This document shows, one piece after another, positions 13,682-58,902 of a stretch of 58,902 bases of DNA. The stretch is from a virus. Its lineage: Duplodnaviria > Caudoviricetes. The position numbers and the translations under genes are program-made. The notes under the pieces are model-generated. The model worked only from the letters and a program-made list of their open reading frames with translations, was not told the origin of the DNA and made no database searches. Where the stretch lies: the IMG/VR virus record IMGVR_UViG_3300020200_000033, positions 1 through 58,902 of that record, one strand, 5' to 3'. Positions within the stretch are counted from its first letter, which is position 1, and each line of letters begins with the position of its first letter.

Positions 13682-13754
<73 letters not shown>

Positions 13755-13765
13755 CAAAGGAAAAA

Positions 13766-30150: not shown

Positions 30151-30576
30151 ATGGAAAACGAACAAGAACAGGAACAGCAAATGACCGACCAACAAGAAAG
30201 GGATAGCATTATGCAAAATGATGTATCTTCATCTGACGATTTTACTATCGTCAATGAAGAAGATTTGGTTTTTGTTAGGCGAACAAAAAAGCCAGAAGTA
30301 AAACTTTACTTTGATGGTGGTACTTATTTGACTAATTATCCACATCACCGTGATGGTTGGACAAAAGCTGATTGGGATTTTTATGCTTCGCTTGTGCGAA
30401 TGAAAGTCGCAAGGAATACGCGAAAAGACAAACTTACGGTTCTTGATGACATCAAGGAATTCCGTATGATACCAACAAAAGAAGCAAATGAGCTTTGCCA
30501 ATACCTTTATGACACAGATTTGCTTTTTGTTGTTTATGAAGGTGATGAAATCAAAAGGAAAAGCCTTGGAAACTGA
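30151..30576 (+). CDS. Hypothetical protein sharing an N-terminal FxIVNExDLxF motif with cassette proteins
   Basis: DDFTIVNEEDLVFVRR. Confidence 0.7.
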   Translation: MENEQEQEQQMTDQQERDSIMQNDVSSSDDFTIVNEEDLVFVRRTKKPEVKLYFDGGTYLTNYPHHRDGWTKADWDFYASLVRMKVARNTRKDKLTVLDDIKEFRMIPTKEANELCQYLYDTDLLFVVYEGDEIKRKSLGN

Positions 30577-31754: not shown

Positions 31755-31828
31755 GCTGCCATAGCTCAATTGGATAGAGCAATAGACTTCTAATCTGTAG
31801 GTTATAGGTTCAAATCCTATTGGCAGCG
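31755..31828 (+). tRNA. tRNA-Arg (UCU)
   Basis: GCTGCCA/TGGCAGC acceptor, GCTC/GAGC D arm, loop CTTCTAA, T arm ATAGG-TTCAAAT-CCTAT. Confidence 0.93.
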
Positions 31829-31874
31829 CAAAAGATCTCCTATCAATAATGGTAGGGAAAAACAAAGGAAAAAT

Positions 31875-41443: not shown

Positions 41444-41944
41444 ATGGGATATTATGTCCGAATTGACGAGCACGACTTTAAAATTGCAAAGAAAGACTTT
41501 AAAAAAGCATATGAAGCGTGTGTTGCTCTAAACGATAGAGATGATTTAAAGTCAGGTGGTGGGGGAAGTTTTACTCTGCCAAATGGTAAAGCAATGAAAT
41601 ATGGTGATCCTCGACCAAAAGGTATGAGTTATCATCCAATGAAATGGTTTAGTTGGATGGAACCTAATTATCCAGAAATTTGTAAAACACTAAACGATAT
41701 ATTGGATGCACTTGGCTTTGAAACTGATTATGATAATAAAGGCAATATTATCGGCCTTGCTTATGATAACAAAGTTGGTGATGAGACATATTTTCTCCAA
41801 GCAATTGCTCCATTTGTAAAAACGGGATCGTTTATTACTTGGGTTGGAGAAGATGATACATATTGGAAGCAGATATTTAATGGTAAAAAAATGATAACAA
41901 AGACTGGACGTGTGGTATACGAAAAAGTATTAGATGACGAATAA
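41444..41944 (+). CDS. Conserved phage hypothetical protein
   Basis: MGY..WFSWM..IAPFVKTGSFITWVGED. Confidence 0.72.
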   Translation: MGYYVRIDEHDFKIAKKDFKKAYEACVALNDRDDLKSGGGGSFTLPNGKAMKYGDPRPKGMSYHPMKWFSWMEPNYPEICKTLNDILDALGFETDYDNKGNIIGLAYDNKVGDETYFLQAIAPFVKTGSFITWVGEDDTYWKQIFNGKKMITKTGRVVYEKVLDDE

Positions 41945-41947
41945 GGT

Positions 41948-42123
41948 TTGAAATACAAGCAGACGCTCTCTAACGGCTGAAAAGAGTTTTTGTTTAATCC
42001 CAAAAACTCGTTTTTGCATATTATATAAAAGTGTAGTTGAGTGCACTTTTGCAAACAGAAGTTCTCTAGCTGCTGAAAAGGGTTTTGTGTCGGATTAACA
42101 CAAAACTCGTTCTTGTATTTCAA
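41948..42123 (+). ncRNA. Candidate structured RNA 1 (pseudo-symmetric, kissing loops)
   Basis: 12-bp closing stem, two homologous hairpin pairs with a compensatory change, complementary loops TAATCC/GGATTA; G-U pairs favour the + strand. Confidence 0.65.
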
Positions 42124-42176
42124 TAATAAGAGCTATGCGGAATAAGTGAATGCGAGACATTCGTTTCCGTATAACT

Positions 42177-42386
42177 TTTATTAGTATTATTGGTTAGAGA
42201 TAGGCTACGGTATCCCTTTCAACCTTAAGGAAATTGTGCATTATTATATGTCCCCGAATTTATGTTGTTCTGATTCGGGTATCCACTCCCCTTATGGAAA
42301 TGGCAGTATAATAATGTCAAGCTACCTTTAACCGTTGTGGTTAAGCAAACAATTTCTGCTTATCTCTAGCCAATAGTGTTAATAAA
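42177..42386 (+). ncRNA. Candidate structured RNA 2 (29-bp closing stem, multibranch)
   Basis: 42177-42205 pairs with 42358-42386 with no mismatch (5 G-U); nested internal stems. Confidence 0.65.
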
Positions 42387-42398
42387 GAAAGGAATATT

Positions 42399-42635
42399 AT
42401 GGCAAAAAGCGAATCAATGGCTCTATTAGAAATAATGGAGATTGTATCTATGCCGGGTGAAATATATTCAGATGGCGATTGTTTAGATATGATCATTAAT
42501 GTTCTAGAAGAAGCCGGCCTTCCTGTAAAGGAAGAGATGAAAAGAATGCAAGAAGAATTTAGAAAGAATCAAGAATTAAAATGGGAAAATTTGGAACGGG
42601 AAGAAATCGTCAGGAAACTACAAGGAAGTAAATAA
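42399..42635 (+). CDS. Hypothetical protein
   Basis: AAGGA RBS; YSDGDCLD. Confidence 0.68.
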   Translation: MAKSESMALLEIMEIVSMPGEIYSDGDCLDMIINVLEEAGLPVKEEMKRMQEEFRKNQELKWENLEREEIVRKLQGSK

Positions 42636-42717: not shown

Positions 42718-43134
42718 ATGACAACAATAAAAGATGAACTTGCAAATCTTAAAACAGATGAGCAAGTCTACAAATATGTAAGAGATTTTTTAATTAATCA
42801 AAATAAGAAATCGGAAAATACAAATGACGGTTGTGCTTATCGTGGAGAAGATGGTACAAAATGTGCTGTTGGTTGTCTTATCTTAGATGAATTTTATTCA
42901 GATGAATTTGAGGGTGGATTGCCAAATGAAAGGCTGGGAACAAGAGGTAAAAGAATTGTAGAAGCTATTTGCAAATCTCTTCCAAATTGGATATTCAATA
43001 TAAGTCTATTAGAGAATGTTCAAGAGATACACGACAATTATGAACCATACGCTTGGCAATACGAATTCAATCGTAGAGAAGAAAAATACGGTTGGTTTAC
43101 ATATCATTACTACAAAAATAAGGAGAATGTATGA
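42718..43134 (+). CDS. Hypothetical protein, CxY..KCAVG..IHD family (paralog 1)
   Basis: CAYRGEDGTKCAVGCLI..QEIHD. Confidence 0.75.
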   Translation: MTTIKDELANLKTDEQVYKYVRDFLINQNKKSENTNDGCAYRGEDGTKCAVGCLILDEFYSDEFEGGLPNERLGTRGKRIVEAICKSLPNWIFNISLLENVQEIHDNYEPYAWQYEFNRREEKYGWFTYHYYKNKENV

Positions 43135-43583
43135 CAGCATTTAGCCAAAATTTTCTAACGCAACTTAGCACCGATAAACAGGTGTGGCTTTGGGTTAAGG
43201 AAAGACTCACTGATCAAAAATCAAAGTCCTTTGATGAAGATGGTCATTGTGTCTATAAATCAGACACAGGATTAAAGTGTGCAGTTGGTCATCTAATAGA
43301 GCCAATTTTCTATGACGAAGAAATTGAAGGACACGCAATTTATAGCCATGAAGTTCAAAATATAATTAAAAAATCTGTTCCAAATTGGCAAATGAATGAA
43401 ATGCTCTTAAACAAACTTCAATGTATTCACGATAGTATGAGTCCATTTCATTGGGAAGAGGCTTTTGATGAACTTTGGTTTGATGAAAATGATAATTACA
43501 TTCATACCACAAGTGGATTTGCGCAATATCAGTTAACTAAGTGGAATATGGAAAAGAAAGTGGCAAGCAGTGCGACACTTTAA
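43131..43583 (+). CDS. Hypothetical protein, CxY..KCAVG..IHD family (paralog 2)
   Basis: CVYKSDTGLKCAVGHLI..LQCIHD. Confidence 0.75.
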   Translation: MTAFSQNFLTQLSTDKQVWLWVKERLTDQKSKSFDEDGHCVYKSDTGLKCAVGHLIEPIFYDEEIEGHAIYSHEVQNIIKKSVPNWQMNEMLLNKLQCIHDSMSPFHWEEAFDELWFDENDNYIHTTSGFAQYQLTKWNMEKKVASSATL

Positions 43584-45617: not shown

Positions 45618-45831
45618 TATAGTAGTTGGTCAAAAAATTACGTCAATACGCCATATGACAAAAGAAGAACTGGTTGATGAAGGTTGGGAATTGTGCAAGC
45701 AAATGTCTACAGTTGCTATTGTTTTATCAAATGGCACAATAATCTATCCATCTGCCGATGATGAAGGTAATGGACCGGGTGTGCTATTTGGTAAAACGAA
45801 AGATGTAGGTGGTATATATATTCACCCATAA
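45610..45831 (+). CDS. Conserved phage hypothetical protein
   Basis: IVVGQKITSIRHMT..PSADDEGNGPGVLF. Confidence 0.72.
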   Translation: MADIVVGQKITSIRHMTKEELVDEGWELCKQMSTVAIVLSNGTIIYPSADDEGNGPGVLFGKTKDVGGIYIHP

Positions 45832-50920: not shown

Positions 50921-51216
50921 AGATCGAAATTACATCTATGGAATTTGTCAGCGTTAGGGTTGCCTAACTGCCCAGGTAATAGGTGGGGTTATAGATGCCC
51001 CATAAAGGTATTACCTTCACTAAAACATTAGATAAAGAATGAGACAAAAATTTTTACGCACTCCACTGTAATATTACATCGTAATATTACCAACCGTAAT
51101 ATTACAGGGCCCGAAGCTAAAGAATAGATCGCGTATTTGCCGAATTATTTGGTAAAACAAAGCCGGGAGTTAAGCTCGCCCTATGGATCGCGTATTATAT
51201 TTTTTTTAGTTTCAGG

Positions 51217-51245
51217 TTGGTTTTTTTTAGATATGCTGGTAGGCT
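51217..51245 (+). promoter_or_regulatory. Cassette 1 promoter
   Basis: TTGGTT-N17-TAGGCT with TGG extension. Confidence 0.65.
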
Positions 51246-51319
51246 CGTCTCAGCCTTGCGAATAGGCTGAAATAAGTAAAAAAAAAGAAATAACAACAAA
51301 GAAAGAAAAAGGTAGCAAT

Positions 51320-51655
51320 ATGCCAAAGGAAATGGATAACAACAACAACAACGAATTCGAAATCGTGAACGAGAACGATTTGGAATTCACTTCACGTGGG
51401 CGAAAGTCAAAGATTTCCGATAAGGAAGTCCAAAACGTTCGGGTTCAGGTGGAGAAAAACCCAAATGGTTGGGTTCTCTTCAACGCAAAGGCAATTCCTT
51501 CGGGAATGGTTGATGCGAAAGAAATCCGAAACCACAAGGCAACGGTTAGCGCACAAATTCGCCAATTGGCAAAGAAATTGGGAATGAGTGTCGCAATTCG
51601 TTGGCACAAAGGTACAATTCCAGCCGCGAAATTCGGCAAGGGAAAAACCAAATAA
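51320..51655 (+). CDS. Cassette 1: small basic RGRKS-family protein
   Basis: EFEIVNENDLEFTSRGRKS..KATVSAQIRQLAKKLG..GTIP. Confidence 0.8.
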   Translation: MPKEMDNNNNNEFEIVNENDLEFTSRGRKSKISDKEVQNVRVQVEKNPNGWVLFNAKAIPSGMVDAKEIRNHKATVSAQIRQLAKKLGMSVAIRWHKGTIPAAKFGKGKTK

Positions 51656-51705
51656 TTCCGTAAGGAATTGACATAGCCTATTCGCAAGTCTAAGAATAAA
51701 GAATT

Positions 51706-51737
51706 GGGTGGGGAGAAATCTCCACCCTTTTTCTTTT
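51706..51737 (+). terminator. Intrinsic terminator
   Basis: GGGTGGGGA-GAAA-TCTCCACCC-TTTTTCTTTT. Confidence 0.88.
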
Positions 51738-52191
51738 GTATTGTGTCGAGTCCCGGATAAAACATTAGCTAAAACGCGATCTTTTTTTTTATTTTACAAC
51801 GGTGTAATATTACACTGTAATTTTACCGGCCATAAGGATAACCATAAAGATGAAATGTAAAATTACCAATTGGATAAAGGTTCACAACGAGCTTACCAAA
51901 TTGATTAGGATAAAGATTATTAAATTGTTGAGAGCCGGTGTAATATTACGATGGTTGTAATGTTACGGAAGCGTAACATTACACCCACGAAACATTACAT
52001 AAAGTATTCCATAAAGGTAATATTACCGCTAAGGAATAAGCACACTAAAAGTCTAAAAGAATGCTGTATTATTACCGTTGGTAATATTACGCTGGTTCGC
52101 ACAAAAAAAATCGGCCGGCGTAACTTTACGATCGTGTAAGTCAACGCCGGGGCAGTTGTGGTACGGGGCAGTTATGGTACACCGACAGAGC

Positions 52192-52264
52192 AAAAAAAAA
52201 TCGCCTAGCGATTGCGTAGTACAAGCGTGGTTAGTGCTTGTAAAACTACGCAACCGCTAGACGA
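52192..52264 (-). terminator. Long hairpin terminator of cassette 2
   Basis: 20-bp stem with G-U pairs on the minus strand followed by T9. Confidence 0.75.
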
Positions 52265-52363
52265 CCTGCTGTTGCCACCCAAAGGCTATGTCGGTTGCCA
52301 ACCCGACTAGTACTAAGAGCCGTAAGACGTTATCTTACAGAGATGTTAGCAATCGCTAGACGG

Positions 52364-52672
52364 TCACTTGCGTGAGCGTGAACGCAGACGCACGGTAGGG
52401 ATACCGTCGACCGTGAACTTGATGTCCACGACGACCCCCGCCTGCTTGCCTGCTGAGCGCAACTGTGCCGACACCGTAGCCTTACGGCTCTTGTCGGTCA
52501 AGTCAACACGCAACTTCTTGATTGTCAAAACTTGCCCTGGGGTAAGTTTTCCAATCATCGCAACGATGGCGGGGTCGGCTTGCGACTTCCTGCCACGGCG
52601 AGCGAAGTTGAGTTCGCTCTCGTTCACAATCTCAAACTCGTGGTCGTCAGCGTTGCCCGTGTTCTTGGACAT
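52364..52672 (-). CDS. Cassette 2: small basic RGRKS-family protein
   Basis: EFEIVNESELNFARRGRKS..KATVSAQLRSAGKQAG..GIPTV; GAAAGG RBS. Confidence 0.8.
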   Translation of the reverse strand: MSKNTGNADDHEFEIVNESELNFARRGRKSQADPAIVAMIGKLTPGQVLTIKKLRVDLTDKSRKATVSAQLRSAGKQAGVVVDIKFTVDGIPTVRLRSRSRK

Positions 52673-52921
52673 CGTTGTAACCTTTCGTGTGAGTAAGGGA
52701 ACTAACGGATAAGAACAGTAGTACCACTACTGCCCCTTGCTGTAAGTTTTGGTAGCCGTGTTCGTTACCTTACACGGCACTAGGGTTCGCTGACTGCCTA
52801 GCAATCCCACACTTGTGGTAAAGTTACCACACCATCACACCACGACCTAGCCGATGCTCGGCGGTAAAGTTACCGCCCGCCTACTAGGTTGACCGTGGTA
52901 CGGGTCAAGATGGCAAGAGCC

Positions 52922-52965
52922 ATTCTATCAGCCGATTGGCGAACCCCAACACGAACAGACGTTCG
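52922..52965 (-). promoter_or_regulatory. Cassette 2 promoter with LexA (SOS) box
   Basis: CGAACAGACGTTCG (52952-52965)-TG-TTGGGG-N16-TAGAAT. Confidence 0.72.
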
Positions 52966-53211
52966 CAAAAGAACCCATAAAGTTGACTGATTAGGTCGGG
53001 TATTAGCTGAAAGATTGGATTAGATAATGATCGTAAAGTAGCACGGCCGTAAAATTACGTTTGATTTCATAAAAGTTTTCCGGCCGTAAGATTACATTAG
53101 AATCGCGTACTCAAGTAATCTTACATGTGTGTATTGTTACAGTGGGCGTAATCTTACAGTCAGTGTAAGATTACGCCCCCCGTAATATTACCGAAAAATT
53201 AGGCGTAAGAA

Positions 53212-53243
53212 TACTCCCAGCGCCTGCCACTAGCGCTGGGAGT
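53212..53243 (-). terminator. Hairpin terminator of cassette 3
   Basis: TACTCCCAGCGC..GCGCTGGGAGTA just past the stop. Confidence 0.7.
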
Positions 53244-53263
53244 AAACTTACAGCCTTGCCAGA

Positions 53264-53551
53264 TTAGGCGAGAGTCACTTGGGGGATACCTGACGGACTC
53301 CACCCAATGCGAACCTTCTTACCTGCCTGCTTGCCTGCCTGACGGATAGTGGCACTGTGCTTTGCCTTCTCCGTTTTTGCCTTCGGGCTATTCGGGCTCA
53401 CTGCCATTGACTTTATGACTAGTGCCTTACCTTTGGTGAGGGATGAGATACCCTTCACCAATTCTGGGGATACTTGGGACTTGCGCCCACGCTTTGAGAA
53501 TTGTAGCGAGTCTTCACTCACTACCTCAAAGTCATCCTTACTCGTTGCCAT
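53264..53551 (-). CDS. Cassette 3: small basic RGRKS-family protein
   Basis: DFEVVSEDSLQFSKRGRKS..SATIRQAGKQAG..GIPQV; GAGGAG RBS. Confidence 0.8.
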   Translation of the reverse strand: MATSKDDFEVVSEDSLQFSKRGRKSQVSPELVKGISSLTKGKALVIKSMAVSPNSPKAKTEKAKHSATIRQAGKQAGKKVRIGWSPSGIPQVTLA

Positions 53552-53606
53552 TGTTGCCTTCTCCTCTGGAACCCTACTTCTTTTTCGGGCTCCGTTGTTA
53601 GATACC

Positions 53607-53635
53607 AAACTACTCCCGATACCGAACCTTTGCTA
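53607..53635 (-). promoter_or_regulatory. Cassette 3 promoter
   Basis: TAGCAA-N17-TAGTTT; near-consensus SOS box CGAACAAGTGTTTG at 53760-53773. Confidence 0.55.
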
Positions 53636-54006
53636 TTGGAGCGTCAGTCAGTACCCCCAAAAACCCCAATAAAAACAAGGGTTTTTGAGAGTGTGCCAAA
53701 AGTCACACCGAATTGGTTGTGTAGTTTTAGGCAAGTTGGAAAACCTACGCAGTCAATGGCGAACAAGTGTTTGCCACCATAAAGTAGCATTGTCGTAAAA
53801 TTACTTAGGTATTGGTTTCATAAAGTTTCCCGGCTGTAAAGTTACATAAACATACTCAATTTTCCCTGTATGATCGTAATGTTACTGAGGGCGTAACTTT
53901 ACGAACTCGTAAAGTTACGCCCGCGTAATATTACTTGATGACAGGCTGTAAAATTACGCCGGGGCTGGTTGCCCAACTTTGACGTAACTTTACTAGGCGA
54001 GTAACT

Positions 54007-54438
54007 TTACTCGGCTGTAACTTCTACTTCTGCCAAGCCCTTGATATATTGGTCGCACATCACCCAAAGAGTGTGCGTATTGTTACACTCATCACAGTCG
54101 CAACCCTGAGCGTACTTCTCAAACAGACTATGCCAAGTGTTCAGCATATCCGCAAACATCATCAGGTAAGAATACTCACGTGTCAGATTAGTACCGCCTT
54201 CGTTGGCGTGGTTCGTTGCGAATGTTAGCAATCCACGACGGTAGAAGTCTGCCCGTACCCGCTTGTCGTGTTCGTCAGGTTGGATATTCCAGATACCTAG
54301 GCGTAAACTTACGTGCCTAGCGTACTCACCTACTTCACGTCCGCACTCACGCACGGCTAGACGGAACTCCGTCTGTGTAAGCGGTCGGATGAAGTACGGT
54401 TCGTCGGGGTTCGGGCTGATTGGGTTGTCGTTGTTCAC
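54007..54438 (-). CDS. Cassette 4: helical protein with CDCDEC motif
   Basis: AAGGA RBS, own promoter, stop codon inside a GTAA box. Confidence 0.75.
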   Translation of the reverse strand: MNNDNPISPNPDEPYFIRPLTQTEFRLAVRECGREVGEYARHVSLRLGIWNIQPDEHDKRVRADFYRRGLLTFATNHANEGGTNLTREYSYLMMFADMLNTWHSLFEKYAQGCDCDECNNTHTLWVMCDQYIKGLAEVEVTAE

Positions 54439-54488
54439 TTGTGTATCCTTACGTGAGCCATATCATCGGCGGGGTTGCCGACGGGTTC

Positions 54489-54535
54489 AGTCTACCACCC
54501 CCCCGGACGCGTTCCAACAGTCCCAAGAATGGTAC
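54489..54535 (-). promoter_or_regulatory. Cassette 4 promoter with RTMCCA-N4-TGGKAY operator
   Basis: GTACCATTCTTGGGAC-TG-TTGGAA-N17-TAGACT. Confidence 0.75.
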
Positions 54536-54735
54536 TTTGTATTATTACATTAGATCATCTACCATAAAGATTTGGCCATTGTAATGTTACAATTGTGTAC
54601 TCCATAATGTTTATAAATGCGTAATATTACTACGGGCGTAAGATTTCAAAACCCCCAAATCTTACGCCCGCGTAATATTACAGTGCATAGAATGTAAAGT
54701 TACACCGGGGACTAAGGATTAGTTTTGGTGTAACT

Positions 54736-55161
54736 TTACTGCGCTGTAATGATTTCAGCGCTTGCGAGTAACTTTACAAAGAACTTTATGGCTTCGCCGT
54801 GAACCATAACGGTAGAACAAACATCACAATCACAGTTTTCTGTATTGTTACACGTCTGTTCAATTTCTTGCATTATCGCAACATTGTCTAGGAAGTTTGC
54901 TAGCACTTCAAGCGTCAATGGTGATTGCGCTGGAATGTTACTGAGTTGCCCGTCAAGTTGTATTCTTACACGACTTATCTTGTGCCCTAAGTCAATGTTG
55001 GCTTCAACCTGAGCGGTAAACTTACGGGTAAGTTCTTCACTCGGTGGTGTCTCGTCTTCGTCAAGTCTGAGTAAGACTACCTCGCAGTAGGTATTGAATG
55101 AACGACCTAGCGCTTGCCATAGCGCTACCCATTCATCACTCGTCATTCGTTCCACTCTCAT
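54736..55161 (-). CDS. Cassette 5: helical protein with CDCDVC motif (likely paralog of cassette 4)
   Basis: MTSDEWVALW..; leader identical to cassette 6. Confidence 0.75.
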   Translation of the reverse strand: MRVERMTSDEWVALWQALGRSFNTYCEVVLLRLDEDETPPSEELTRKFTAQVEANIDLGHKISRVRIQLDGQLSNIPAQSPLTLEVLANFLDNVAIMQEIEQTCNNTENCDCDVCSTVMVHGEAIKFFVKLLASAEIITAQ

Positions 55162-55210
55162 TGGTGTAATCTTTCTGTGAGTATTTCATCGACCCTTTGC
55201 CGATACGTTC

Positions 55211-55257
55211 ATCATAGCAGCCCTAGAAATGGCTTCCAACCATACCAAGAATGGTAC
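55211..55257 (-). promoter_or_regulatory. Cassette 5 promoter with the same operator
   Basis: GTACCATTCTTGGTAT-GG-TTGGAA-N17-TATGAT. Confidence 0.75.
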
Positions 55258-55426
55258 TTTGTATTGTTACGCGATCACCTGATTACATTATCCACCATAA
55301 AGGATTGGCCATTGTAATGTTACAATTGCGCATTCCATAATGTTTATAAGTGTGTAATGTTACTGCGGGTGTAAGGATTGAACCCCCCCAATCCTTACAC
55401 CCGCGTAATATTACCTGGATCAATTT

Positions 55427-55472
55427 GTAAAATTACGCCGGGGCTAGTTTCCTAGCCCTGACGTAACTTTAC
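55427..55472 (-). terminator. Hairpin built from two GTAA boxes after the cassette 6 stop
   Basis: 21-bp stem, GAAA tetraloop on the minus strand; homologues at 53948, 54694, 56985. Confidence 0.6.
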
Positions 55473-55484
55473 TGCGCCGTAAGT

Positions 55485-55856
55485 CTACGAGTTGGCAAGG
55501 CGGGCAATTGCGTCTTTGGCGAGCAAGTACCCTTCTTTCAATTCTTCCGTAGGTGTCAGATTACGGGTTAGGTAAGAGTAGTGCCACTCCACGATGTCTA
55601 GCATCTTGGCGAGATACTCAAACGAGTCTGCCGACCTTGCTGTAACACTACCAGACTCTAACGCTTCCGCAATTTCTACTCCCTGTGTTGCCATCTGTGT
55701 ACCATCAATGGCATCACACAACAATTGCTCAACATTGTCTTTAGTTACGGGGACGTCATTTTCGACGGTCAACGCAACTCTAATTGAGAATTCGGCAACG
55801 AGAAAGCAAGCGAAGCGCATCACCGTTAGCCATTCTTCCTTATTCATTTCTTCCAT
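55485..55856 (-). CDS. Cassette 6: helical protein (likely paralog of cassettes 4-5)
   Basis: MNKEEWLTVM..; leader TACTCACAGAAAGATTACACCAATG shared with cassette 5. Confidence 0.75.
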   Translation of the reverse strand: MEEMNKEEWLTVMRFACFLVAEFSIRVALTVENDVPVTKDNVEQLLCDAIDGTQMATQGVEIAEALESGSVTARSADSFEYLAKMLDIVEWHYSYLTRNLTPTEELKEGYLLAKDAIARLANS

Positions 55857-55905
55857 TGGTGTAATCTTTCTGTGAGTAGTTGTCCTGCCTATTGGCATTA
55901 CCCAT

Positions 55906-55952
55906 AGTCTACCACGCCCGGTAATCGCTTCCAACTATCCCATAAATGGTAT
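55906..55952 (-). promoter_or_regulatory. Cassette 6 promoter with the same operator
   Basis: ATACCATTTATGGGAT-AG-TTGGAA-N17-TAGACT. Confidence 0.75.
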
Positions 55953-56204
55953 TTTGTATTATTACGTTGAGTCAAAAGTAATATTACGTTTACATAAAGA
56001 CACTAAATTTGTAAAGTATCTTGCCTGTAATCTTACGGGTGTGGCGCGGGGGGTTTAGGCGCGCCACACCCGCCCGTAATGTTACCCATAAAGAAGTAAA
56101 TCCACTAAAATTACACAGCCGTAATACATAGCCCGCTTGGTAATATTACATAACATCAAAGCTATGCGCTAACTATTGTTAGCGGGCCGATAACAAAAGT
56201 ATCT

Positions 56205-56251
56205 GTACCATTTTTGGGATAGTTGTGGGTAAGGTTTTGGGCTGGTAGGCT
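56205..56251 (+). promoter_or_regulatory. Cassette 7 promoter with the same operator
   Basis: GTACCATTTTTGGGAT-AG-TTGTGG-N17-TAGGCT. Confidence 0.72.
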
Positions 56252-56300
56252 ATGGGCAACGGATTACGAAGGGTAGTCCCCAAACAAAGGATAAAACAAA

Positions 56301-56741
56301 GTGAAAAAAAAGAAGGTAACAAAGGCAACAACGGCAAAGGCAAAGGCATTTGCCAAAAAACTTAGTACCAAAATTGGTACTGCCAACAAGGTACTAGCAA
56401 AAATCCCAGCCAAACCCATTTACGATAGCGAGTATCTAAACCTTGCTATTGGCAAGGCACTAAATGGAATTGCTATGCCAGCAGACAAAAATGCTCGTGA
56501 GTGGTGCGCCGATAACGGTGTCGTTGTGGATGTACGCAAAATGGTACACGAAAACAAAGAAGGCAAAGTGTCGTGCTTGCGACCCGAAAACACGGTACGC
56601 CAGCGTTTAGAGACACTTAGCAGGGTAGATAGTCGGATAGCAAAAGTGGCGTACTGTCGCAAATTGGTAAATGGTACTAGTGACGCTTGCGACCCAACAA
56701 ACAACGATGCTTACCTAGTTTTCATTTACCTAACTAAGTAA
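56301..56741 (+). CDS. Cassette 7: basic RPENTVR-family protein
   Basis: AREWC..VH.N..VS..RPENTVRQR; AAGGA RBS. Confidence 0.8.
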   Translation: MKKKKVTKATTAKAKAFAKKLSTKIGTANKVLAKIPAKPIYDSEYLNLAIGKALNGIAMPADKNAREWCADNGVVVDVRKMVHENKEGKVSCLRPENTVRQRLETLSRVDSRIAKVAYCRKLVNGTSDACDPTNNDAYLVFIYLTK

Positions 56742-56755
56742 GTAGTACCAAAAAA

Positions 56756-56787
56756 GACACGGGGCAGAAATGCCCCGTGTTTTTTTT
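56756..56787 (+). terminator. Intrinsic (possibly bidirectional) terminator
   Basis: ACACGGGGCA-GAAA-TGCCCCGTGT followed by a T run; A run upstream. Confidence 0.9.
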
Positions 56788-57038
56788 GTATCCTATGATG
56801 TCCCATAAAGGGTACGGCCTTATAAAATTACATTATGTACCACAAATGGTACATAGGTGTAATATTACAAACTCATACTAAAAAAAATAAGAATAGGAAC
56901 CATTCTCAAACGGGTGTGTCAGAAACGCTGGCGCTGTCTGCTCCACCCGCGTAAGATTACCGTGTAATATTACCTATATGGCTTGTAAAGTTACGCCGGG
57001 GCGGGGGGTTCCCCAGCGTAACTTTACTGCTGTGTTAT

Positions 57039-57347
57039 TTAACTGTTGCCCCAATCGCAACCGTTATCGTCATCGGCATCGCAAGTCATCCAGACATACC
57101 CGCATTCGGTAGTCTCATCTTCGGTAAAGTGACAGAACTTGCAGGGTAGCATCCCCTCATCGTAATGGTAGTGCTTGCGATACCAAGCACGGATTCCGAC
57201 TAGCGATGCCATACGCTGACGGTCAGTATCGGTGGATTGCTCTATCCATTCCCACTCTTCGGGTGTAAACTTACTTGCGTCAATGATGACCAAGTTATCG
57301 GCAGAACCATAAGTCCCGTCAGTTGTGAAGTAATATTTCCTAGTCAC
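57039..57347 (-). CDS. Cassette 8: acidic Cys-rich hypothetical protein
   Basis: YFTTDGTYGSADNLVIIDAS..; GAAAGG RBS. Confidence 0.75.
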   Translation of the reverse strand: MTRKYYFTTDGTYGSADNLVIIDASKFTPEEWEWIEQSTDTDRQRMASLVGIRAWYRKHYHYDEGMLPCKFCHFTEDETTECGYVWMTCDADDDNGCDWGNS

Positions 57348-57397
57348 GTTGTAAAGTTACCTTTCTCGTGGTTGAGTGTACCTATTGGCACGCCATT

Positions 57398-57442
57398 AGT
57401 CTATCGGATATCCAATAGCCTTGCAACACGAACAGATGTTCG
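57398..57442 (-). promoter_or_regulatory. Cassette 8 promoter with LexA (SOS) box
   Basis: CGAACAGATGTTCG (57429-57442)-TG-TTGCAA-N17-TAGACT. Confidence 0.8.
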
Positions 57443-57744
57443 CTTTATGGCTGGTTTATGGGAATGATTCTCATAAAGGATTATGCTGTGTAAACTTACA
57501 TTAAAGAAATGAGGCTTATGTAATATTACGCCAGTCAAAAGTATTCTATTAGTATCTCATAAAGAAATAAACACACTAAACTTACCCGATCGTAACCTTA
57601 TAACCCGCTTGGTAACATTACACAGAGCGGGACATAAATGGTACGGGACAAGAATGGTACACTTCACCGATCGCGCCTAGTCGACGTGGCAGAAAGAGAA
57701 AGAACCCCGTACCATTCTCGGTACGGAGTTCGGCTGACTATCGG

Positions 57745-57783
57745 TAGAAACAGAAAGAGCCCGACTCTTGCGAGTCGGGCTCT
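57745..57783 (-). terminator. Intrinsic terminator of cassette 9
   Basis: AGAGCCCGACTC-GCAA-GAGTCGGGCTCT-TTCTGTTTCT. Confidence 0.82.
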
Positions 57784-57801
57784 CTCTTGCGAGAGTGTCT
57801 C

Positions 57802-58278
57802 TCAGTTCTTGCGAACGATAAACACTTTCTTCGCATCAGCATTCTTCGAGTCGGTGGCAGTCGGTGAACCGTTCTGAACGAATCGGACATACGCCAGAGT
57901 CTTCACCAGAGCGAGAGCGTTGCGCTCTTTCTGATTCAGTTTCTTCATCACTTCTTTCTCGCTCGTCAGATTCACGAATGTGAGAATGCGAGCCCTAACC
58001 GTGTTCTCTGGTCGGTTCGTGCTAACACGCTTCACATGGTTCTTGTGAACGATGGAATCCACCGATACCACGAACGCCTCATTAGCGAGACACCACGAAC
58101 GAGCGTCAGTCTCATTCTTCGGCATCACTTTCTTCGTGAAGAGTGCTTCACTCATCGCATTCAGAAGAACGAGCGACACATAGACACGCTTAGAGCGCAT
58201 CTCAGCCCGAACCTCATTCGTCTTGGTGATGACTGAAAGCATCAGTTTCACCCACTCTTTCTTACTCTTCTTACTCAC
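57802..58278 (-). CDS. Cassette 9: basic RPENTVR-family protein (paralog of cassette 7)
   Basis: ARSWC..VHKN..VS..RPENTVRAR; GAGGA RBS. Confidence 0.8.
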   Translation of the reverse strand: MSKKSKKEWVKLMLSVITKTNEVRAEMRSKRVYVSLVLLNAMSEALFTKKVMPKNETDARSWCLANEAFVVSVDSIVHKNHVKRVSTNRPENTVRARILTFVNLTSEKEVMKKLNQKERNALALVKTLAYVRFVQNGSPTATDSKNADAKKVFIVRKN

Positions 58279-58326
58279 TTCGTTATCCTCTCTCTTAGGG
58301 CTCGCCCGTTGCGAACCGTTGAGAGC

Positions 58327-58371
58327 ATTCTAGCCGACCCAGAAGAGCCTTGCTACACGAACGAATGTTCG
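58327..58371 (-). promoter_or_regulatory. Cassette 9 promoter with LexA (SOS) box
   Basis: CGAACGAATGTTCG (58358-58371)-TG-TAGCAA-N17-TAGAAT. Confidence 0.78.
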
Positions 58372-58594
58372 TATGATTACGCATAACTATACGAGCTGAC
58401 GCATAATAATACACTACGCATAAACATACACCGTAATGTATGATTACGCGATCTACCATAAACGGTACATCGGTGTAAGATTACGAATGCGTATTCCATT
58501 TCTGGTATGTACCATTTATGTCCCAACGGGTGCGTCTGCTACGTGAAACTGGGCAGCTCCACCCGCGGTATTATTACATAAAGGTGGATCGGTT

Positions 58595-58750
58595 GTAAAA
58601 TTACATGTTAAAAATGAGACACTCAAGGACACTACAAGGTTTGGTGTTGTAATCTTACATCCATTAAAAATGAGACACTCAAGGACATTATAAGGTTTGG
58701 TGCTGTAATATTACACATACTAAAAATGAGACCATAAACTGTAATGTTAC
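58595..58750. repeat. About 2.6 tandem 54-56-bp repeats, each starting with a GTAA box
   Basis: GTAANNTTAC..TAAAAATGAGACACTCAAGGACAYTAYAAGGTTTGGTGYT. Confidence 0.88.
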
Positions 58751-58828
58751 GCTGGGCGTGTTGGTCGTCAGACTGCGGGCTTGGTGTTGGTCGTCAGATT
58801 GCCCGCTCGACTGAACCCCATAACGCCA

Positions 58829-58864
58829 GAACCCCCGCCTACCCTTGCGGGCAAGCGGGGGTTC
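58829..58864 (-). terminator. Hairpin, probable terminator of a further cassette beyond the window
   Basis: GAACCCCCGC..GCGGGGGTTC with a GCAA loop on the minus strand. Confidence 0.5.
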
Positions 58865-58902
58865 GGGGGGGGGTTGTAGCGGGTGCTACTTGGTGCGGAA
58901 CA

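Follow-up and report, generated by a model that had tools for sequence, protein, structure and literature searches.

Positions 42177–42386 of the window (the whole stretch of 58,902 nucleotides analyzed here) encode a plus-strand member of a conserved family of structured RNAs carried by uncultured freshwater phages. The RNA is closed by helix P1 and has a three-way junction, in which the linkers UA and UAAG are invariant. Its small hairpin P2 displays a CCUUUC loop, and its P3/P4 helix is accompanied by hairpin P5. The family comprises 36 distinct RNA sequences of 115–216 nt, from lake-metagenome and IMG/VR phage contigs, one of them clipped by the end of its contig. We propose, with a probability of roughly 40%, that it is a stable non-coding RNA freed from a longer transcript, whose C/U-rich loop acts on purine-rich RNA resembling Shine-Dalgarno (SD) sequences.

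Genomic location of the RNA

The window corresponds to a 58.9 kb IMG/VR virus record with an estimated completeness of 56%, from an uncultured tailed phage that encodes a DnaE-type polymerase, a primase, a helicase and a terminase. Its G+C content is approximately 0.35 and nearly all of its genes are on the plus strand. The RNA lies within a spacer of 454 nt (41945–42398); where coding is dense in the window, no gap between open reading frames is longer. Directly 3′ of P1 are the SD sequence GAAAGG (42387–42392) and the ATG at 42399 (together 42387–42401, plus strand), which start a 78-aa ORF at 42399–42635. The helix ends at 42386, and thus just ahead of this ribosome binding site, as an earlier note on this DNA had described. 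The same order of P1, SD and 78-aa ORF is found in five of the related loci (L034, L036, L040, L015 and L002).

The upstream part of the spacer contains the element called ‘RNA 1’ (41984–42108, plus strand), identified by repeat and terminator prediction as a duplicated unit of about 96 nt with two terminator-like hairpins (41984–42009 and 42080–42108). Behind the first of these, and upstream of the 42177–42386 RNA, there is a TATA-like sequence, TTTTTGCATATTATATAAAAG, at 42011–42031. We considered this motif as a general promoter of the phage and rejected it: the intergenic copies in the coding part are only those at 42022 and, in a weaker form, at 45813. A further hairpin between ‘RNA 1’ and the RNA, which the earlier note placed at about 42132–42177, is predicted at approximately 42132–42176 (plus strand) in the fold of the whole spacer. 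It is outside the conserved family: L040 retains it, but L015 and the short forms do not. It is also not a recognizable decayed tRNA, having a tRNA-similarity score of 24 compared with 19.8 ± 4.4 for shuffled sequences.

The suggestion that all of this forms a single RNA of about 440 nt, of which 42177–42386 would be one domain, is not supported. ‘RNA 1’ is separable, it contains two terminator-like hairpins, and it is restricted to relatives of at least 87% identity (L033–L037), while an RNA of the 42177–42386 type is present without it in L040 and in every distant relative.

Identification of homologues

The ORF upstream of the spacer encodes a 166-aa protein belonging to PHROG 38862, which has no assigned function and has 44 homologues in a large protein collection. 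A search with an alignment of 29 of these homologues (A1) yielded 31 loci from viruses and 73 from metagenomes, chiefly freshwater ones; searches of viral contigs with the single proteins of the two flanking ORFs gave no related loci. Comparison of the spacer with the retrieved loci by blastn gave three grades of conservation: L034–L037 match the full spacer at 87–93% identity, L040 retains only the part containing the RNA studied here (79%), and L002 and L015 retain short conserved blocks. A covariance model, R1, was built on six sequences. Of 99 sources searched with it, 42 gave plus-strand matches, at E values between 1e-60 and 1e-4 and always downstream of the 166-aa gene.

A pattern describing the conserved core was then run against all IMG/VR contigs, where it gave 21 matches, of which 16 pass R1 and seven are on new contigs. 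The same pattern in 185,579 prokaryote genomes produced 72 matches, which is about the number estimated to arise by chance, and none of these passes R1. Among 50,697 records of cultured phages, blastn with the window spacer and two short forms found no match. At the seven loci found by the RNA pattern alone, the 166-aa gene is never present; its association with the RNA is consequently a by-product of the way in which the loci were retrieved, and we discarded this gene as a functional partner. Its product gives a confident AlphaFold model (pLDDT 89.8), for which a Foldseek search of the PDB returned no match at E values up to 0.001.

Structure of the window RNA

The 42177–42386 sequence is predicted by RNAfold to have an energy of −69.5 kcal/mol on the plus strand, compared with −40.9 ± 4.0 kcal/mol for 200 dinucleotide shuffles (z = −7.08), and no shuffle folds as well. 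The minus strand folds less well, at −61.3 kcal/mol (z = −5.8). The two arms of P1, at 42177–42205 and 42358–42386 (plus strand), are supported by an inverted-repeat search, by RNAfold and by covariation. All 29 positions pair, in 24 Watson-Crick and five G-U pairs with no mismatch, exactly as read by the earlier note; the G-U pairs are at helix positions 8, 9, 11, 18 and 27, and the inverted-repeat search returns the same 29-nt arms with 83% complementarity. The stems which that note had nested within P1, namely GAAATTGT/ACAATTTC, CATTATTATA/TATAATAATG, CCCGAATT/GATTCGGG, TCCA/TGGA and TTAACC/GGTTAA, are all reproduced by RNAfold, and the two unpaired C/U-rich tracts that it pointed out are likewise present, as ATCCCTTTCA (42212–42221) and CTCCCCTTA (42286–42294).

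Moving inward from P1, the first junction, J1/2 (42206–42208, plus strand), is UAC in the window and UAA in most members, its U and A being invariant in 31 of 31 sequences. It is followed by the P2 hairpin (42209–42224, plus strand), whose loop, at 42212–42221, contains the near-invariant family motif CCTTTC at 42215–42220. Its six columns are conserved in 31, 31, 29, 31, 31 and 29 of the 31 sequences, respectively. Junction J2/3 (42225–42228, plus strand) is UUAA in the window. The family consensus here is UAAG, which includes the first G of P3, with T in 31/31, A in 31/31, A in 28/31 and G in 31/31 sequences. The 5′ strand of P3 (GGAAATTGT, 42229–42237) pairs with its 3′ strand (ACAATTTCT, 42349–42357), both on the plus strand.

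The P4 domain (42238–42317, plus strand) is identified by RNAfold and as an inverted repeat. It has a base helix formed by 42238–42248 and 42307–42317, and two inner hairpins, P4a (42253–42279) and P4b (42282–42298), which are restricted to the long forms and are observed in the window, L034, L036, L040 and L015. The loop of P4b, at 42286–42294, is the second C/U-rich loop. P5 (42321–42346, plus strand) is a hairpin of the form GCT…TTAACC GTTGT GGTTAA…AGC, seen with RNAfold and in the family folds. The family motif YCRUUG lies in its loop region, as CCGTTG in the window and as TTCATTG in the short forms. By-eye inspection of the P2 and P5 loops for internal pseudoknot partners revealed no conserved one. 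The open reading frames within 42177–42386 are all 31 codons long, and the only one on the plus strand is disrupted by an indel of 1 nt that distinguishes L034 from L036, which argues against protein coding.

Architecture and covariation in the family

Family members share a common plan, consisting of closing helix P1, the UA linker, P2, the UAAG linker, P3 stacked on P4, and hairpin P5. In folds read by eye, P1 measures about 9–12 bp where the RNA abuts a tRNA, compared with 24–29 bp in other forms. P2 is a hairpin of 3–5 bp with the loop (A)ACCCUUUC, and P3 is 9 bp long. The clade to which the window belongs has an enlarged P4 with the two additional hairpins, and five of the six long forms have a second C/U-rich loop, UCCCC(U/G)U, which is UCCCCUU in the window's clade. 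The C/U-rich loop CCCUUUC of P2 is the best-conserved unpaired element of the family. In total there are about 17 invariant columns, clustered in junctions and loops.

Covariation was counted on a MAFFT alignment of 31 sequences, using a hand-drawn structure of 31 pairs that covers the inner part of P1, P2, P3 and the base of P4. P5 and the inner part of P4 were omitted because MAFFT loses register there. With this structure, which was derived from the same 31 sequences, standard pairs occupy 95.1% of 960 cells, compared with 75.4 ± 0.9% in shuffled alignments (none of 500 reaches the observed value); sliding the partners by 1–3 columns reduces pairing to just 39–47%. Changes on both sides are seen in 24 of the 31 pairs, amounting to 190 cells compared with 46 in shuffles. 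They affect 12 of the 13 pairs counted in P1, three of the four in the P2 stem, and five of the nine in P3, where 99.6% of cells are paired; the 5 bp counted at the base of P4 also covary. The homologues conserve both the helix and the core, with many compensatory changes, and so bear out the reading of this region as a structured RNA.

The same count settles the strand. G-U pairs make up 124 of the 960 cells (12.9%), and therefore the same columns read on the minus strand show only 82.7% pairing. Two G-U pairs are themselves conserved: the first pair of P3, which is G-U in 24 sequences and G-C in the other seven, and one pair in the base of P4, conserved in 27 of 31. This asymmetry, together with the z score of the plus strand, upholds the earlier assignment of a structured RNA read from that strand. 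It also bears on the idea of an element acting as DNA (an origin, a packaging or recombination site, or a cruciform), which we regard as highly improbable: the arms form a long inverted repeat, they lie in the largest gap without coding sequence, and the minus strand also folds well, but in a cruciform or on the opposite strand the G-U cells, including the two conserved G-U pairs, would be A-C mismatches, and the orientation is always that of the flanking genes and tRNA.

Population variants also fall in P1. Contigs from four lake-water metagenome runs (X5–X8; DNA contigs with differing study codes, possibly from one campaign) carry the allele 42198 A>G, and its pairing partner 42365 shows T>C in X7 and X8. 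Two further changes in X7 and X8, G>A at 42378 and T>C at 42379, convert G-U to Watson-Crick pairs.

Linkage to tRNA-Arg(UCU)

The main contextual clue, which the earlier note missed, is a linkage to tRNA-Arg(UCU) in relatives. ARAGORN identifies a tRNA-Arg(tct) gene no more than 100 nt upstream, on the same strand, in 25 of the 36 members, many of them without any spacer. It is downstream of the RNA in one member (L032) and absent in ten: L070, L119 and eight members of the window's clade. The loci recovered with only the RNA pattern show the same linkage, the tRNA abutting the RNA in six of seven. The short, tRNA-linked group and the window group are bridged by L002 and L003, which are long forms with the tRNA 4 nt upstream.

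The window has its own tRNA-Arg(UCU) at 31755–31829 (plus strand; ARAGORN, anticodon tct), 10 kb from the RNA, and behind it there is merely a plain hairpin. The window's clade has thus lost the link to tRNA-Arg(UCU). By eye, reduced forms with P1, the CCCUUUC hairpin and one more hairpin stand behind tRNA-Arg in L018, L019, L020, L024 and L080; there is a plain hairpin in this position in L096, and no element in L026 and L093. The tRNA-Arg genes do not encode CCA. We infer that the RNA is co-transcribed with the tRNA; in L006, where only 6 nt separate the 166-aa ORF from the start of the tRNA, there is no space for the tRNA to have its own promoter. Taken together, the RNA is an independent unit, which occurs without ‘RNA 1’, with four groups of downstream genes, and with the tRNA before it, after it or absent.

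Comparison with known RNAs

A search of the whole window with Rfam 15 (4227 models) at the gathering threshold returned two tRNAs only. At E values up to 10, positions 41800–42500 gave seven weak matches at chance level, none spanning the RNA and all far below gathering; at E values up to 1, nine member loci gave nothing but tRNAs and mirror matches of tRNAs.

The closest parallel in position is in phage T4, where rnaD and rnaC, of 119 and 139 nt, are on the same strand in the order tRNA-Arg, 1 nt, rnaD and then rnaC; this tRNA-Arg presumably has the anticodon UCU. The family resembles rnaD in being directly 3′ of a phage tRNA-Arg, within 100 nt in 25 of 36 members, although the window copy is not. 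We rejected homology to rnaC and rnaD, as R1 run with filters off gave no significant match over positions 70908–71171; the best R1 match elsewhere in the T4 region (E = 0.0066) is a plain hairpin. Read by sequence, the T4 RNAs also lack the CCUUUC hairpin and the GGCUAA…UAAG junction of the family. The small stable RNAs of T4 are described as having been known for decades to be made together with the phage tRNAs, with their roles still unassigned (PMC3014915).

There is a similar resemblance in setting to GOLLD, which was reportedly first seen in lake metagenomes, and to ROOL. Both are described as structured RNAs without assigned function that are frequent in phages or prophages, often beside tRNA genes and possibly co-transcribed with them (PMC5737381). 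Membership of either class would entail a length of more than 500 nt and an Rfam match, whereas the family is 115–216 nt long and matches no Rfam model; ROOL RNAs have a reported mean length of 581 nt and are rich in junctions and pseudoknots (PMC5737381).

A different comparison is suggested by the loops. In Gram-positive bacteria, the C-rich loops of the regulatory sRNAs RsaE/RoxS and of the actinobacterial 6C RNAs are reported to pair with G-rich SD regions (PMC2790875, PMC6486639). The family is similar to these in having a conserved unpaired C-rich motif in hairpin loops, of which the long forms carry two. It differs in that its motif is CCUUUC rather than UCCC or CCCC, in its closed multi-helix fold, and in being phage-encoded and tRNA-linked; nor does it match them by sequence or by Rfam model.

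Fremin et al. (2023) used covariation to predict 8,495 uncharacterized phage RNA candidates of 29–151 nt in IMG/VR, one of which, DNAVirus_2961, sometimes overlaps predictions of tRNA-Arg (PMC10690425). Neither an architecture nor a tRNA-Arg linkage nor a conserved loop like those found here is presented in the main text of that paper. The family thus matches none of the described RNAs that we searched, with the proviso that the comparison with this catalogue is to its main text, so that this RNA, or part of it, may already be catalogued there. As a kind, the tRNA-linked phage small RNA is already known from T4 rnaC/rnaD and from GOLLD/ROOL, as these are described in PMC3014915 and PMC5737381.

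Proposed function

The transcription, ends and stability of the RNA are inferred here from sequence. We suggest that it is made within a longer transcript, which in the relatives would contain the 166-aa gene, tRNA-Arg and the RNA, and that the nucleases that trim the 3′ end of the tRNA would then set it free. In the window's clade, with its 29-bp helix and no tRNA, release could be by a cut of the RNase III type in the long helix, or the RNA may simply persist as a protected 5′ domain; in either case it would be protected because its ends are locked in P1. RNase III sites are uninterrupted double-stranded RNA of about 20 bp or more. P1 reaches this length in the window (29 bp), whereas the by-eye folds of the tRNA-abutting forms have only about 9–12 bp, so that RNase III cannot be the maturation route of the whole family. 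The exposed CCCUUUC loop, with UCCCCUU in the long forms, would then pair with SD-type sequences resembling GAAAGG(G) in phage or host mRNAs.

The P2 loop is complementary to GAAAGG(G). It also resembles the 3′ tail of many 16S rRNAs, CCUCCUUUC. The CCC of the loop would mismatch a canonical GGAGG. A scan of the loop against the 75 translation-start regions of the window gave a mean of −5.0 kcal/mol, compared with −7.2 kcal/mol for a 16S-type anti-SD, and is not discriminating. One candidate target in trans, a 10-nt complement of the P2 hairpin at 30196, was rejected as a chance occurrence because the related record, that of L015, does not retain it. The conserved junction nucleotides would equally suit a fold that binds a protein or a ligand.

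The alternative that has to be weighed most carefully is that the RNA acts in cis, as the 5′ UTR of the gene that follows it (mostly DUF3846; the 78-aa ORF in the window), and controls its translation, read-through or mRNA stability. Variants of this idea are a 5′ stabilizer left after excision of the tRNA, pairing of CCUUUC with the SD, and a ligand or protein switch with P1 as the terminator stem. Of the 35 loci examined, 30 have an ORF of at least 45 codons no more than about 200 nt downstream of the RNA, at a distance of 9–41 nt in 26 of these and 72–136 nt in the other four. Twenty-two of the ORFs form one cluster, of which the four tested are all DUF3846 proteins. In the window, the SD begins 1 nt after P1 and its GAAAGG complements CCUUUC; the 42399 start region ties for third of 75 in the pairing scan, and riboswitch aptamers, like this RNA, typically have conserved nucleotides in their junctions. 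Such a leader would be expected to precede one constant gene family and to have an alternative pairing, but the downstream ORFs of the 35 loci fall into four unrelated groups (besides the large cluster, the 78-aa family at six loci of the window's clade, and two other groups at three loci), and a search for a conserved alternative, anti-terminator pairing found none. Moreover, the RNA is followed by the tRNA in L032 and by no SD in L056.

The signals around the RNA fit a leader in part. A run of at least five U residues occurs at or after P1 in 16 of 31 members, which favors the terminator-stem variant and at the same time suggests that the transcription unit ends at the RNA there. It occurs in none of the six members of the window type, and in the window itself there is no U-run after 42386 and no terminator is predicted there. 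The TATA-like motif follows the RNA in 21 of 31 members (doubtfully so in L002). In relatives the U-run and this motif thus stand between the RNA and the gene, but the motif is upstream of the RNA in the window, so that the position of the RNA relative to this signal is not kept. In the short forms the loop could pair with an SD behind P1. Such pairing is sterically unlikely in the window, where the SD is at the far end of the 29-bp helix, at an estimated distance of about 80 Å from the P2 loop. On balance we consider a cis-acting leader doubtful, though worth keeping in view.

It is rather unlikely that the RNA instead works by binding a host or phage protein as a decoy, or that it is a new self-cleaving or ligand-binding RNA. 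Conceivable binding partners are ribosomal or RNA-processing factors and nucleases that normally recognize the pyrimidine-rich 3′ tail of 16S rRNA. With about 17 invariant columns in junctions and loops and five helices in 130–210 nt, the family is comparable to riboswitches and ribozymes, and its site at a processing junction right after a tRNA would suit a ribozyme cleaving at its 5′ end. Against this, the Rfam searches of the window spacer (E up to 10) and of the nine member loci (E up to 1) gave no ribozyme or riboswitch, and a Pfam scan of 73 ORFs of the window found no RNA-related protein.

A simpler role, as an elaborate terminator or cleavage platform (or both) that sets the 3′ end of tRNA-Arg(UCU) and has no function of its own, we judge to be unlikely. 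It would account for the 25 of 36 members that stand close behind the tRNA, often without a spacer, for the short P1 (about 11–12 bp in folds read by eye) followed by a U-run in the abutting forms, and for a position identical to that of rnaD behind the T4 tRNA-Arg. However, the window's clade (eight of 36) retains the RNA, with compensatory changes, where there is no tRNA nearby and no U-run; the order is reversed in L032; and a plain hairpin suffices in L096 and nothing at all is present in L026 and L093. A role of this kind also leaves the invariant loops and junctions unexplained.

A stable non-coding RNA acting through its C/U-rich loop is the reading that we retain. We also venture a bolder idea, which we regard as a long shot: that with this RNA the phage mimics the pyrimidine-rich 16S 3′ tail, displaying it as a decoy on a nuclease-proof scaffold, or else that the RNA is a new ribozyme or ligand sensor involved in maturation of tRNA-Arg(UCU). 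A 16S-tail mimic might sequester the SDs of a class of mRNAs and so reprogram translation during infection. It might instead divert a host factor or defense nuclease whose substrate is tRNA-Arg or the anti-SD end of the ribosome.

Significance

With this family, tRNA-linked phage small RNAs gain a second example beside T4, one that is independent and far better constrained. It extends the catalogue of structured RNAs in uncultured freshwater phages, in which most of the neighboring genes have no assigned function. It offers dozens of natural variants, a fold backed by covariation, and a single invariant loop as a pointer to the active site, besides natural minimal and expanded versions and a clade, that of the window, in which the RNA has become uncoupled from the tRNA. 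With these features, the role of a tRNA-linked RNA would be directly testable once a phage and its host are in culture.

Flanking genes and repeats

The ORF upstream of the spacer (41444-41944, 166 aa) corresponds to PHROG 38862, and more than 100 freshwater phage contigs carry homologues of it; further homologues, 39-44% identical, are present in nine Arthrobacter phage records representing eight distinct phages. The family has 22 invariant residues, among them those of the motifs DDLKxGG and YHPxKWF. AlphaFold gives a confident model of the protein (pLDDT 89.8), for which Foldseek returned no fold match in the PDB.

RNA 1 (41945-42130), the spacer stretch upstream of the structured RNA, consists of two copies of a unit of approximately 96 nt, with blocks that are 83% and 88% identical. 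Each unit carries one terminator-like hairpin (41984-42009 and 42080-42108), and the whole is closed by a 12-bp helix (41948-41959/42112-42123). Covariation evidence is absent for RNA 1, because it is present only in relatives at least 87% identical. We note that the first hairpin is followed by a U-run and the motif TATATAAAA, and that a similar motif lies 3′ of the structured RNA in other phages.

On the other side of the structured RNA, just 3′ of the 78-aa ORF that directly follows it, lie two paralogous neighbours of 138 aa (42718-43134) and 150 aa (43131-43583), both of which match PHROG 17693.

The end of the window (51000-58902) has a G+C content of 0.45-0.48, compared with about 0.35 before it. 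Its ORFs are short, sparse and for the most part on the minus strand; seven of them gave no Pfam match, and this part of the window gave no Rfam match. Many copies of the palindrome GTAATATTAC / TGTAAnnTTACA crowd it, and three copies of a unit of approximately 722-747 nt lie in the interval from about 53.1 to 56.0 kb. This region may be a cassette of small genes that has been repeated, along with sites resembling operators or promoters.

tRNA genes and the DUF3846 module

The window contains tRNA genes for Lys-UUU (13682-13755) and Arg-UCU (31755-31829). In five related phage loci (L018, L024, L096, L026 and L093) there are clusters of tRNAs for A/U-ending codons, namely Leu-UAA, Ile-UAU, Lys-UUU and Arg-UCU. 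The CCA end is not encoded in the tRNA genes.

The window has neither the tRNA-Arg gene nor a DUF3846 gene at the place corresponding to that of the module found in its relatives. There, 30 related loci have an ORF 3′ of the structured RNA, and in 22 of them this ORF belongs to a single cluster of proteins of 107-128 aa (for example L006:3723-4109, L016:4146-4508 and L095:559-894), and all four cluster members tested contain DUF3846 (PF12957, E 1e-12 to 1e-20). The module of tRNA-Arg, structured RNA and DUF3846 gene is a conserved unit of these related phages.
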